Positions 24 to 3,101 of a stretch of DNA of 11,661 nucleotides are shown piece by piece. This DNA is from a virus. The position numbers and the translations under genes are program-made. Every line of letters starts with the position of its first letter. Position 1 is the first letter of the stretch. Location: the UHGV virus genome UHGV-0318018; one strand, given 5' to 3'. The notes below the pieces were generated by a model. That model did not search any database. It was given only the letters and a program-made list of their open reading frames with translations, and was not told the origin of the DNA.

Positions 24-692
24 ATGGACTTCATTGCCGCAAATCAATGCCGGAGTCAGCCGGATGACGCAAAGCGGATAGAGTGTTATGACAAAGCTGT
101 AACTCCAACACGCACCAAAACATTAGAAAAGTTTGAAAGCAGGGATCAATGCAGGGATGAGGCGTGGGAGAAAAAAAGGCTGTCTTGCTATGATCGTTTT
201 TTTTCTCCAACATTTACTAATGCCAAGGTTGACAATGTACATAAAGACAGTAGGGATGTTGGGGACTGGAAAGTTGATATAAAAACATCTCCAATCGATG
301 ACTCTAAAAATGTTGTTATCTTTGTGAATGGTAATGATTCTTTTAGGTCCCCGTTTGGAGACAACATAACTCCAACTCTTTATATTGCGTGTAGGGAAAA
401 TAAAACAGAGCTGTTTATAGATTGGGATGTATACTTGGGGCTGAGTGAAACTACGATGATTCATCGAATAGATAAACAAAAAGCCATAAACAGAAAGTGG
501 TCTATTTCAACAAATACAAAGGCCGTCTTTTATGATGGTAATGTGATTGATTTTATAAGAAAGTTACAAAGTGGTAATCAGTTATTTGCTCAGATAACCC
601 CATATAGTGAAAGTCCGGTGAGCACAACCTTTAATCTCAAAGGTCTTTCTGAAGTTATTAAACCATTACAAGAATCATGTAACTGGAAATAG
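24..692 (+). CDS. Hypothetical protein in an AT-rich accessory gene; possibly 5'-truncated by the window edge
   Basis: 222-codon ORF, stop TAG at 690-692. The frame is open from position 3, so the true start may lie upstream. Composition is visibly more AT-rich than the phage tail genes. Contains a duplicated motif C-x9-R-[IL]-x-C-Y-D (CRSQPDDAKRIECYD and CRDEAWEKKRLSCYD). No family recognised by eye. Confidence 0.5.
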   Translation: MDFIAANQCRSQPDDAKRIECYDKAVTPTRTKTLEKFESRDQCRDEAWEKKRLSCYDRFFSPTFTNAKVDNVHKDSRDVGDWKVDIKTSPIDDSKNVVIFVNGNDSFRSPFGDNITPTLYIACRENKTELFIDWDVYLGLSETTMIHRIDKQKAINRKWSISTNTKAVFYDGNVIDFIRKLQSGNQLFAQITPYSESPVSTTFNLKGLSEVIKPLQESCNWK

Positions 693-769: not shown

Positions 770-1066
770 TCAGCCATATTTGCGGGCGAAATCTTCATCT
801 GAGGTGCATAGATAGATAAAAAATTCAATAAAAGCCACGATTGCCGGGATAAATGTCCAGCAAAAAATAAGGTAAAGAAATCCCTGCCCCACTTTACCTA
901 AATAAAATTTGTGTGCACCAAGACCACCTAAAAAGAAAGCCAGTAGTGCGGCTGTCATTCTGCTTTTTGAACTTGCTGTTCTTTGAGGTGCTCCACAATT
1001 GGGGCAGGATGTGGCATCTTTATGTATTTCCTTGCCGCATCCGCGGCAAAATACCATTTCACTCAT
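770..1066 (-). CDS. Small membrane protein with N-terminal zinc-ribbon (CxxC...CxxC) and TM2-like hydrophobic C-terminal domain
   Basis: 98-codon ORF. N-terminus CRGCG...CPNCG is a C4 zinc ribbon, followed by two hydrophobic segments (LLAFFLGGLGAHKFYLG and LYLIFCWTFIPAIVAFIEFFIYL). SD-like AAGGA sits 7 nt upstream of the ATG at 1066. Confidence 0.6.
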   Translation of the reverse strand: MSEMVFCRGCGKEIHKDATSCPNCGAPQRTASSKSRMTAALLAFFLGGLGAHKFYLGKVGQGFLYLIFCWTFIPAIVAFIEFFIYLCTSDEDFARKYG

Positions 1067-1170
1067 AAAGAGTTCCTTTCAAATTTAAACAAGCGTTAAG
1101 CCCACCACTCTTACTGGCGGGCCTCAATTTAAATTTGGGTGCCACTTCGACCTTACCCTGGCAACCGATT

Positions 1171-1192
1171 GACGGGGGATTGCTCCCCCGTC
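1171..1192. other. Perfect 9-bp stem hairpin (GACGGGGGA-TTGC-TCCCCCGTC) in the hok 3' flank
   Basis: Read directly from the sequence. Followed on + by GCGGTTTCC. Could be a transcript 3' structure of the hok mRNA or a terminator; function not established. Confidence 0.3.
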
Positions 1193-1201
1193 GCGGTTTC
1201 C

Positions 1202-1342
1202 TTACTGCTTACACTGTAAGAACGCCGCAAACTCCGCTCCCCAGAAGCTCATCCGTATTTCGCACAGCGAACCGTGCAGCATCCAGATGATGAGGATTGC
1301 CGTCACGCAGAACGTGATGGCCGTAAGCGATTTTTGCGACAT
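1202..1342 (-). CDS. hok: Hok/Gef-family type I toxin (small membrane-depolarising peptide)
   Basis: Hand translation of the - strand gives ATG(1342-1340) MSQKSLTAITFCVTAILIIWMLHGSLCEIRMSFWGAEFAAFLQCKQ stop TAA(1204-1202), 46 aa. It has an N-terminal TM helix followed by the SLCEIR motif and an E-x-AAF C-terminal region typical of Hok/HokA-E peptides. AAGGAG SD lies 8 nt upstream. It is absent from the ORF track because it is under 60 aa. Confidence 0.6.
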   Translation of the reverse strand: MSQKSLTAITFCVTAILIIWMLHGSLCEIRMSFWGAEFAAFLQCKQ

Positions 1343-1472
1343 AGCACTTGCTCCTTTTCCGGAGAGGCGCTAACCTTTCACTTGTCAAGGTAATGCGGTT
1401 AGGGCCTCGGTTAAACAGAAATGTTTTCCGGGGCCTTTCCACATCTGGCCTTCGGGTATTCCCTCCGACCAT
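1209..1472 (-). CDS. mok-like overlapping reading frame (modulation of killing) covering the hok gene in another frame
   Basis: 87-codon ORF that starts 130 nt upstream of the hok ATG and ends 7 nt before the hok stop, in a different frame. This geometry matches the mok/hok arrangement of plasmid R1. The sequence itself is not conserved enough to confirm. Confidence 0.3.
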   Translation of the reverse strand: MVGGNTRRPDVERPRKTFLFNRGPNRITLTSERLAPLRKRSKCYVAKIAYGHHVLRDGNPHHLDAARFAVRNTDELLGSGVCGVLTV

Positions 1473-1532
1473 CAGCCGAAAGGCACCCGCGCGTAATCTA
1501 TCGCTTTTTTGTTACTCCGGCAATTCTGTTAG

Positions 1533-1793
1533 TTAATTCTGAGATAAAGGCAAACTCATCTGATTGTTTCCCCTGTGTGAAGCTGGCAGCTCATGCCACG
1601 GGATACCTTCTGAAGAGTGAACGCCGGAGGCGTGTTTTGATGTGAATTTATGGAAAGCTTCCAGTGTTGAGAAGCATACGCCGCATTCCAGGTTGTTACA
1701 CTGGTAATACTTTTGCCGCACGGTGTTTGAATCATTTTCCGGACGACTGGTGCGGATACGGGCAGATGCGCCACAAAGCGGACAACGGAACAT
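1533..1793 (-). CDS. ogr: Ogr/Delta-family zinc-finger late transcription activator
   Basis: 86 aa beginning MFRCPLCG...YYQCNNLECGVCF, with the four Cys of the Ogr zinc finger at positions 4, 7, 32 and 37. Strong SD AAGGGAGG sits 5 nt upstream of the ATG at 1793. Lies immediately downstream of gpD as in P2. Confidence 0.85.
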   Translation of the reverse strand: MFRCPLCGASARIRTSRPENDSNTVRQKYYQCNNLECGVCFSTLEAFHKFTSKHASGVHSSEGIPWHELPASHRGNNQMSLPLSQN

Positions 1794-1835: not shown

Positions 1836-2945
1836 TCACTCTGTTTCTGCTATCCATTCCGGGATTTTTGCCTCAAGCTCAAGCTGCGTGGTAAAGCCGC
1901 TGTTATCGATGGTGTGCTCGGCTTTTGCAATAATCCAGTCCTGATTATCAATCTCGCTTTTAAATCCTGTTACCGTGCCATGCATTTCGGGGTAGAGTTC
2001 TGCACGACCACGTGCCAGCGTGATGGAGAATGATGCGGCTCCGCGTTGTAGCTGCTGCCACTTTGCCGCCGCTGCGCGTCTTGCTGCCTGCTCGTTCTGA
2101 TAAGTCTTGCGTAACACAAACACATTGCCTTCCGCGCCTTCCATATAATCACCTTCACGGCTGCTGCTTTTCTCCTTTTTGGGTTTTGGCGGTTTGCGGC
2201 GTTTCACGCTGACTTTTTTCTTTTTCCCGTAATTAAGATCAAGCCAGTAAGCGCGTACCCCCGTATACGCCTCGCGGTCAGCAATGCGGAACTGATGGCG
2301 ATCGCCGCTACTGCGTGTGATGGCGAACGATGGCAACGGCTGGCCCTGTGCGTTCACGCCACCGCCGGGCATGATGAATAACAGATTACCGCTTTTTACC
2401 GTGGTGATTGCGCCCAGCATTTCCGCCATGCGCGTAAGGAAGGACATGTCACTTTCTTCGGTCTGGTCGGCGTGGTCGATTTCGATATCCATCAGCATTT
2501 CGCTGATTTGCGGTTTCAGACCGTACCGATGAGCGATGGCGGATACCACACGCTCAACGGTCACATCATGCCAGGACACCTCACGTTTAACGTTAAATTC
2601 ATCCCGAAAATCTGCGCTTCTGGCTGAAACAGTCAGCCTGTCCGGCGGTCCTTCGTGAGCGATTTCATCAACAATGTAAGTGCCTTTTTCTGTCAGCGGT
2701 TCTCCTTTCCAGCCAATGAGAACCGTCAGGCGCGCGCCCCGTGGCGGTAGCTGCAACTGACCATCTGCATCATCCAGCGTGATGGTGAGCTGGTCTGCTT
2801 CAAATCCCCGGTTGTCGGTCAGTGACAGGCTCATCAGGCGCTCTGCCACGCCTGACAGCGTTTTACCCTCCGCGAGAATATCAAAATCCGGCATTTTCAC
2901 GGGGTCTGTGCTCTGACTGAGCAATTGCATGGTGGTGTCGGTCAT
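1836..2945 (-). CDS. P2 gpD-like tail protein (late control gene D family)
   Basis: Long ORF 1836-2966. The preferred start is the ATG at 2945 (MTDTTMQLL...), preceded by GGGAGGG at 5-nt spacing. Size (about 369 aa) and position next to ogr match P2 gpD. Contains an unusual Lys/Arg-rich patch GKKKKVSVKRRKPPKPKKEK. Confidence 0.85.
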   Translation of the reverse strand: MTDTTMQLLSQSTDPVKMPDFDILAEGKTLSGVAERLMSLSLTDNRGFEADQLTITLDDADGQLQLPPRGARLTVLIGWKGEPLTEKGTYIVDEIAHEGPPDRLTVSARSADFRDEFNVKREVSWHDVTVERVVSAIAHRYGLKPQISEMLMDIEIDHADQTEESDMSFLTRMAEMLGAITTVKSGNLLFIMPGGGVNAQGQPLPSFAITRSSGDRHQFRIADREAYTGVRAYWLDLNYGKKKKVSVKRRKPPKPKKEKSSSREGDYMEGAEGNVFVLRKTYQNEQAARRAAAAKWQQLQRGAASFSITLARGRAELYPEMHGTVTGFKSEIDNQDWIIAKAEHTIDNSGFTTQLELEAKIPEWIAETE

Positions 2946-3101
2946 CTTTCCCTCCCTGTGCGGCATGGTCGCATGTGCGTGCGGAGGGGGTTACTGCTTT
3001 TTGTTGTCGCCGTGGCGGGAGAACGGCGCAGGGGTGAGATTACGCGCGTGGTGGGTGATGATTGTTGCCGAATCATTTAACGGATACAAGGGGCTGAAGC
3101 T
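2946..3101. promoter_or_regulatory. Divergent intergenic region expected to carry promoters for D-ogr (leftward) and the FI-U operon (rightward)
   Basis: 156-bp gap between divergent start codons, each with a good SD. No exact Ogr box (TGT-N12-ACA) was found by eye, so promoter positions are not assigned. Confidence 0.35.

Follow-up and report, generated by a model that had tools for sequence, protein, structure and literature searches.

A probable hok/sok-type type I toxin–antitoxin module between ogr and the end of a P88-like prophage

Results and discussion

The hok gene and its product

The window analysed in this study is the whole stretch of 11,661 nucleotides from the UHGV virus genome UHGV-0318018. 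On its minus strand, a hok toxin gene (1202..1342, −) encodes a peptide of 46 aa, which reads MSQKSLTAITFCVTAILIIWMLHGSLCEIRMSFWGAEFAAFLQCKQ and corresponds to sequence 72_1621 of Hok cluster 72. This gene's Shine–Dalgarno (SD) motif, AAGGAG (1351..1356, −), can be read directly, with 8 nt from GGAG to the ATG; local pairing of the SD with CUCC at 1361..1364 is possible, and this local hairpin is present in the MFE fold. An earlier note on this DNA had described a 46-aa ORF with an SD on the minus strand, and both are present at these positions. It had also assigned the peptide to the Hok/Gef toxins, and the profile search agreed: residues 7–44 matched Pfam PF01848 (HOK_GEF) with 29.9 bits (E 4e-7), above the gathering score of 22 bits, and PHROG 251 was matched with 80.6 bits (E 1e-22). 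In length the peptide is close to the ~50 aa of Hok, with a hydrophobic helix near its N-terminus, and all residues conserved in more than 80% of Hok peptides were found, here as M1, C12-V-T14, L26-C27-E28 and E37; the corresponding positions in the logo of the published Hok catalogue are M1, C16, T18, L30, C31, E32 and E41 (bioRxiv 10.1101/2025.08.07.668861).

The scores against the narrower NCBIfam models were below their cut-offs for the 46-aa peptide, both for the HokA equivalog NF007290 (34 bits, E 2e-8, vs a cut-off of 89) and for the Hok-family subfamily NF007279 (21.6 bits vs 73). HokA of E. coli K-12 was the top-scoring of these models, but the score is far under the equivalog cut-off, and the peptide is therefore not a HokA orthologue. 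It is a member of Hok/Gef outside the named K-12 and R1 subgroups. Across relatives, the hok frame has a dN/dS of 0.10–0.37 (pN<pS), whereas the two frames that overlap it show pN≥pS in most comparisons. Since the Pfam gathering score was passed and the frame is conserved with pN<pS, the 46-aa ORF goes beyond a chance open frame.

Prophage context

The ogr gene (1533..1793, −; Pfam Ogr_Delta, 52.4 bits) lies directly upstream of hok, and a gpD-like tail gene (1836..2966, −) is also found upstream on the same strand. The position of hok directly downstream of ogr, which the earlier note had reported, is confirmed. Its description of the locus as accessory cargo at the end of a P2-like late region holds as well, for hok follows ogr in a prophage of the P2 family (P88-like). 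In 74 of the 80 IMG/VR contigs with an identical Hok, ogr and hok share a strand, with ogr ~193 nt upstream. The order gpD–ogr–hok is kept at the end of a P2-type prophage of Salmonella, although the Hok encoded there has only 61% identity. Some Salmonella contigs (L019 1501..2987; L020 1501..2643) carry three tandem cluster-72 hok loci, ~500–700 bp apart, in each of which the predicted Sok-target stretch differs.

Identity to P88-like phages (Xuanwuvirus, Peduoviridae) is 94–97% over the part of the window that runs from 1137 to about 9300. The P88 homology stops at 1137, exactly after the fbi-like element described below; the module from promoter to fbi-like element thus behaves as a unit of its own within cargo that varies. 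Beyond 1137, the window has another hairpin than P88, followed by a gene for a TM2-domain/zinc-ribbon protein (770..1066, −), as in E. coli CDE6306; because the P88 homology has ended by then, this gene belongs to another cargo set. Its product (98 aa, with an N-terminal zinc ribbon) matches Pfam TM2 with 68.6 bits and PHROG 10292 (function unassigned). In CDE6306, the same TM2 cargo set continues with com and a frameshifted DNA methyltransferase gene. A 222-aa ORF (24..692, +) is convergent to the hok and TM2 genes, and its sole match was PHROG 1848 (function unassigned). PADLOC gave zero defence-system matches for Hok, the TM2 protein and the 222-aa ORF.

The stretch 1524..1535 (−), between the ogr stop codon (1533..1535) and the −35 element of the predicted hok promoter (1518..1523), contains no terminator, so that transcription of ogr may continue into the hok leader. 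As this promoter starts 10 nt past the ogr stop codon, such read-through could tie the supply of toxin mRNA to the late-gene switch. In the transcriptome of BTP5, a P2-like prophage of Salmonella, ogr was expressed under all conditions tested (PMC7067206).

The hok mRNA

The predicted hok promoter (−) has the −35 element TTGCCG (1518..1523) and the −10 element TAGATT (1495..1500), separated by a 17-nt spacer. Homology between divergent loci starts at the −10 element, and the position of the promoter is kept in the copies of Stx phages as TTGCCC-17-TAAATT/TAGATT. A generic promoter/terminator scan made no call for the hok promoter, the Sok promoter, the mRNA terminator or the Sok terminator, and hence these elements were placed by homology only; both promoters are poor matches to the consensus, and both the Sok tail and the terminator of hok mRNA are U-poor in the window allele.

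The full-length hok mRNA is predicted to span 1098..1488 (−), about 390–400 nt with GGGUGCC at its 5' end and a terminator-like hairpin (1098..1124) at the other. Positions in the mRNA are given below such that nt N is window position 1489−N. The 5' end was set at 1488, where position 1 of the Rfam model RF01794 falls, the R1-type 5' end being the start of that model. The 3' end is uncertain, given that the U-tract of the hairpin at 1098..1124 is poor and that the terminator scan did not report this hairpin. In a permissive search of 900 nt, RF01794 matched over its full length (1–157) at 1329..1488 (−) with 49.4 bits (E 7e-10), under its gathering score of 59, and a scan of the whole window at the gathering threshold gave no match. 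As a control, the locus of an R1-type plasmid (L022 232..403, +) was matched with 87 bits; this match is on the sense strand and extends from the 5' end of the mRNA as far as the hok AUG. It should be noted that RF01794, although named 'sok antitoxin', models the hok leader, and a match marks the hok strand rather than the antisense RNA.

Pairing and covariation in the hok mRNA

In the MFE fold of 1085..1488, nt 1–15 pair with nt 337–352, and the fold ends in the hairpin 1098..1124 (z = −7.3). To this fold we added a consensus structure of 14 loci from E. coli, E. albertii, Salmonella, Citrobacter and Klebsiella, in which 97.3% of the cells were paired vs 36–42% with partners slid, and 11 pairs showed compensatory changes; these represent few independent events, because most of them trace to the single split that parts the E. 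coli-type clade from the Salmonella-type clade.

Three elements correspond to the switch known from R1. The tac-like element at the 5' end (1478..1488, −; nt 1–11) pairs with the fbi-like 3' element GGUCGAAGUGGCACCC (1137..1152, −) in both the MFE fold and the consensus, and the ucb-like element GAAAGGCCCC (1430..1439, −; nt 50–59) is an alternative partner of the same 5' end. All 11 pairs of the tac/fbi fold-back helix are formed in the 14 loci (100% paired); seven of them are invariant or changed on one side only, and the remaining four are all compensatory. The tac/ucb helix is paired in 95.7% of the cells vs 27–68% when slid, with two compensatory pairs, again essentially from the one clade split. 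Columns 10 and 11 of tac changed in a compensatory manner with both the fbi-like and the ucb-like partner; this is the "coupled covariation" of hok-family loci that PMC9841398 summarises. In the MFE fold of the 3'-truncated mRNA, tac/ucb was not formed, and the 5' end folded on itself in a manner that resembles the metastable hairpin of R1.

The leader further contains a hairpin, GAGGCCCUAAC…GGUUAGCGCCUC (1364..1408, −; nt 81–125). The 5' tail of Sok is predicted to target the loop of this hairpin, which also holds the place homologous to the SD and start of R1 mok. Its helix (helix 5 of the consensus) is 97.4% paired and essentially invariant, hence without covariation support. A stem-loop in the 3'-UTR, GACGGGGGAGCAAUCCCCCGUC (1171..1192, −; helix 12), has compensatory changes in four of its nine pairs and is, by analogy, likely the protective 3' end of the processed (active) hok mRNA; its R1 counterpart protects the truncated hok mRNA (PMC9841398). 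The complement of this stem-loop was flagged as terminator-like on the plus strand by the generic scan.

The antisense unit

A predicted Sok promoter lies within the hok locus on the opposite strand (1348..1376, +), with the −35 element TTGCTC (1348..1353), 17 nt, and the −10 element TAACCT (1371..1376). The site is the positional homologue of the R1-type promoter (TTGCGC-17-TATCCT in R1 vs TTGCTC-17-TAACCT in the window), and its −10 element reads TAACCT or TATCCT in 13 of the 13 loci compared. The antisense RNA predicted from it is about 55–65 nt in length (1384..1440, +) and would consist of a 5' tail (1384..1400), a hairpin (1401..1437) and then UCC. The hairpin, GCCUCG…CGGGGC in both R1 and the window, has a GC-rich stem of 10 bp that is kept in 12 loci, three sequences of which carry one compensatory pair (G-C→A-U); the fold of the predicted Sok-like RNA has z = −4.7.

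Among 35 distinct alleles that encode an identical Hok, variation peaks at nt 91–110 and in hairpin loops, and not in paired elements. The peak at nt 91–110 is the predicted target of the variable 17-nt tail of Sok (1384..1400). For example, the tail/target stretch reads GUCAAGGUAAUGCGG in the window and GCUAAGGUUAGACGG in P88_4B11. Such variation is as expected if recognition specificity diversifies against cross-talk between co-resident loci.

The 87-codon frame and mok

The earlier note had also drawn attention to an 87-codon frame that fully overlaps hok and starts 130 nt upstream, which it compared with the mok-over-hok geometry of plasmid R1. The frame is present (1209..1472, −), but the comparison does not hold: in six R1-type loci, the mok ATG is located 57–58 nt before the hok ATG, 7–8 nt after GAGG (ACGAGGC). 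The ATG at 1472 is nt 17 of the mRNA, within the 5' pairing element, and has no SD. In the IMG/VR contigs with identical Hok, the frame is open from this ATG in 49 of 80 and interrupted in 31; in 20 of the latter it is not open again until nt 104 or 131, and no in-frame ATG, GTG or TTG is then left upstream of hok. Interruptions of the frame occur in P88_4B11 (96% identical), L007 and the Stx-phage copies as well, most divergent relatives have it closed, and its ATG is absent in the Salmonella group. The 87-aa product had no protein-family match in Pfam, NCBIfam or PHROG. Thus, the frame is an allele-specific open frame and neither a conserved gene nor a mok equivalent.

At the site homologous to the start of R1 mok, the window reads AUUA (nt 95–98), and the relatives have no conserved start codon; this site is the most variable stretch of the locus among alleles with identical Hok. 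As a positive control, six out of six R1-type plasmid loci (81–100% identity) keep the mok ATG. In the hok locus of an IncFII plasmid (L022 344..559), the spacing is 1 nt shorter, which places the mok ATG in frame with hok; the predicted product is a Hok of 71 aa with an extended N-terminus, in place of a Mok frame of its own. Other leader ORFs of the window locus (AUG at nt 45, GUG at nt 108 and the frame KVSASP…) were examined as substitutes for mok, and none was conserved or had a start across relatives.

A canonical three-gene hok/mok/sok locus, in which the frame from ATG 1472 or a shorter in-frame version of it (from AUU 1392..1394 or UUG 1386..1388) serves as mok and is needed to open the hok SD, appears unlikely. 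Such an organization would make use of several features of the window: its frame is open from mRNA nt 2 through the hok start, AUU and UUG stand in frame where, by homology, the mok ATG of R1 is expected, 10 and 16 nt past the conserved GAGG and inside the Sok-complementary stretch, the open allele is the commonest one, and translational coupling would be useful where the local CUCC can sequester the hok SD. Against this, the ATG at 1472 has no SD and is buried in the 5'-terminal pairing element, stop codons close the frame in more than a third of the contigs with identical Hok (31/80) and in most divergent relatives, and the homologous start site is the most variable stretch whereas R1-type loci keep its ATG. 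In addition, the frame has pN≥pS in most comparisons and belongs to no matched family.

The abundant Hok cluster 72 as a whole is apparently without a recognisable mok, with the rest of the R1 RNA switch kept; the translation of Hok may be coupled to leader translation of a non-canonical kind or may do without such coupling. One combined proposal, which we rate as possible but less likely than not, is that this cluster works without a mok leader ORF, that the stretch holding the start of R1 mok may have turned into a hypervariable antisense-recognition loop, that translation of Hok would depend directly on the opening of the local CUCC/GGAG hairpin after 3' processing, and that Sok would act via duplex-triggered decay or refolding rather than by blocking mok. 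The possibility of mok-less regulation and the tight linkage of ogr and hok in P88-like phages are modest leads for the field of type I toxin–antitoxin systems.

Prior annotation and occurrence

The earlier note had presented the gene as one that standard ORF calling misses. This is not the case, as PGAP, the RefSeq phage records and the GenBank record of P88 all annotate the ORF. For every ORF-covering E. coli match listed, the PGAP label was 'Hok/Gef family protein', the identical peptide in RefSeq is WP_000078916.1 ("Hok/Gef family protein"), and the 141-nt ORF is labelled 'MokW-like host killing' in RefSeq phage records. The original GenBank record of phage P88 carries the note 'hok/gef family protein' at ORF AIZ95160.1, which encodes the identical peptide; hok is unmentioned in the papers on phages P88 and ΦSM. 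Of 5426 complete E. coli genomes, 1545 contain the locus, and at least 80 phage contigs (IMG/VR) have the identical, intact Hok ORF. Thus, the hok locus is an ordinary and already known element.

The peptide is also part of a recent catalogue. In their preprint (2025–26), Escalera-Maurer et al. catalogued 32,532 hok loci and reported that hok is enriched in prophages (bioRxiv 10.1101/2025.08.07.668861). The identical peptide is listed in Table S2 of that study as 72_1621, in a high-abundance cluster, and was cloned for arabinose-induction assays; 45 homologues were assayed, and the only non-toxic ones named in the text are 19_179, 60_1482 and 69_1540 (bioRxiv 10.1101/2025.08.07.668861). The toxicity of the identical peptide is therefore already published by others. 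The discovery value of the locus is small, as the gene is annotated by pipelines, the peptide is catalogued and the prophage enrichment of hok is known; the use of the present check is that a routine element is kept from being reported as hidden cargo. On the other hand, the catalogue left out mok, Sok and the mRNA structure of the clusters, with the remark that the prediction of Mok is 'not trivial' (bioRxiv 10.1101/2025.08.07.668861), and our results on RNA anatomy and ogr linkage add to it in this respect.

A scan of genome contigs yielded seven loci, three of them probably on contaminant contigs, and the diversity of the locus was accordingly drawn from Hok-encoding contigs and IMG/VR. Contigs L005, L006 and L009 include cluster-72 hok at 98% identity under the labels Planococcaceae MAG and Vagococcus sp. 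and a Xanthomonas pisi contig at 72%, and they probably reflect enterobacterial contamination of the assemblies.

Comparison with R1 and proposed mechanism

Compared with hok/mok/sok of R1 (Hok cluster 47), the window locus shares a Hok/Gef peptide with the SLCEIR core, a leader that is probably homologous over its whole length up to the hok AUG (RF01794), the tac/fbi fold-back with its ucb-like alternative partner, the likely protective 3' stem-loop and the position of the predicted antisense promoter. It differs from R1 in the length of Hok (46 vs 52 aa), in NCBIfam Hok-family scores far under the cut-offs, in an RF01794 score under gathering (49.4 vs 59), in the lack of a conserved ATG at the R1 mok start, and in being prophage-borne whereas R1 is plasmid-borne. 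From Hok cluster 72 there is no difference at the peptide level, as 72_1621, WP_000078916.1 and AIZ95160.1 are identical to the window peptide.

The earlier note had proposed a type I toxin module, and the architecture of the hok mRNA and a Sok-like antisense unit can indeed be seen in the sequence. We consider it very probable (roughly 90%) that ogr and the prophage end here flank a hok/sok-type type I toxin–antitoxin module, which belongs to Hok cluster 72 and is a moron of a P88-like (Xuanwuvirus, Peduoviridae) prophage. Family membership, covarying RNA pairings, a conserved promoter-like antisense element and hairpin and the linkage to ogr were all observed. For the transcript ends, the processing and the action of Sok, we infer the following steps by homology with R1. 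The weak promoter just past the ogr stop codon would give a stable mRNA of ~400 nt, whose tac-like 5' end is locked to the fbi-like 3' element, such that the full-length mRNA would be translationally silent. Once the 3' end had slowly been trimmed to the stem-loop at 1171..1192, the 5' end would be released and could pair with the ucb-like box, and this tac/ucb pairing would open the leader hairpin and allow Hok to be translated. A short and unstable antisense RNA (plus strand, about 1384..1440) would pair with the leader, and in cells that keep the locus such pairing would lead to decay of the activated hok mRNA. Hok itself would be a 46-aa inner-membrane peptide that depolarises the membrane. 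Since a mok-type leader ORF is not conserved in this locus, the R1 mechanism lacks one of its links here, or has it in another form.

An inactive, decaying hok remnant that hitch-hikes on the prophage without working regulation or toxicity in situ, a state likened to that of several chromosomal hok loci of E. coli K-12, would account for the weak promoter matches, the polymorphic leader and a U-poor 3' terminator unlike that of P88, but it is highly improbable in view of an intact ORF that is identical in at least 80 phage contigs and present in 1545 E. coli genomes, purifying selection on this ORF (dN/dS 0.10–0.37), compensatory changes that maintain the RNA pairings, the toxicity of peptide 72_1621 on induction (bioRxiv 10.1101/2025.08.07.668861), and leader variation that sits in loops and in the antisense-recognition stretch instead of the paired elements.

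With regard to the biological role of the type I module, which we infer as well, the locus could stabilise the prophage, help lysis on induction (as hokW–sokW) or exclude other phages, and we regard the three roles as equally possible. Among experimental models of what a hok on a phage does, the best is hokW–sokW of the Stx2 prophage Sp5, a working type I toxin–antitoxin system whose toxin is upregulated when the prophage is induced and which raises phage release twofold (Takada et al. 2021; PMC8621323). Like the window locus, it is a prophage-borne hok/sok; unlike the window Hok, HokW is a different paralogue of 51 aa (MKQQKAM…) in the HokD-like cluster 35, and its host phage is lambdoid, not P2-type.

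Stx-converting phages carry in addition a separate cluster-72 hok copy just downstream of lom (L002 2170..2310; L003 1670..1810). We considered whether this copy was the published hokW and rejected this, because the primer sequences in PMC8621323 identify hokW as the HokD-like paralogue. The cluster-72 copy of the Stx phages is a true relative of the window locus, with ~80% nucleotide identity.
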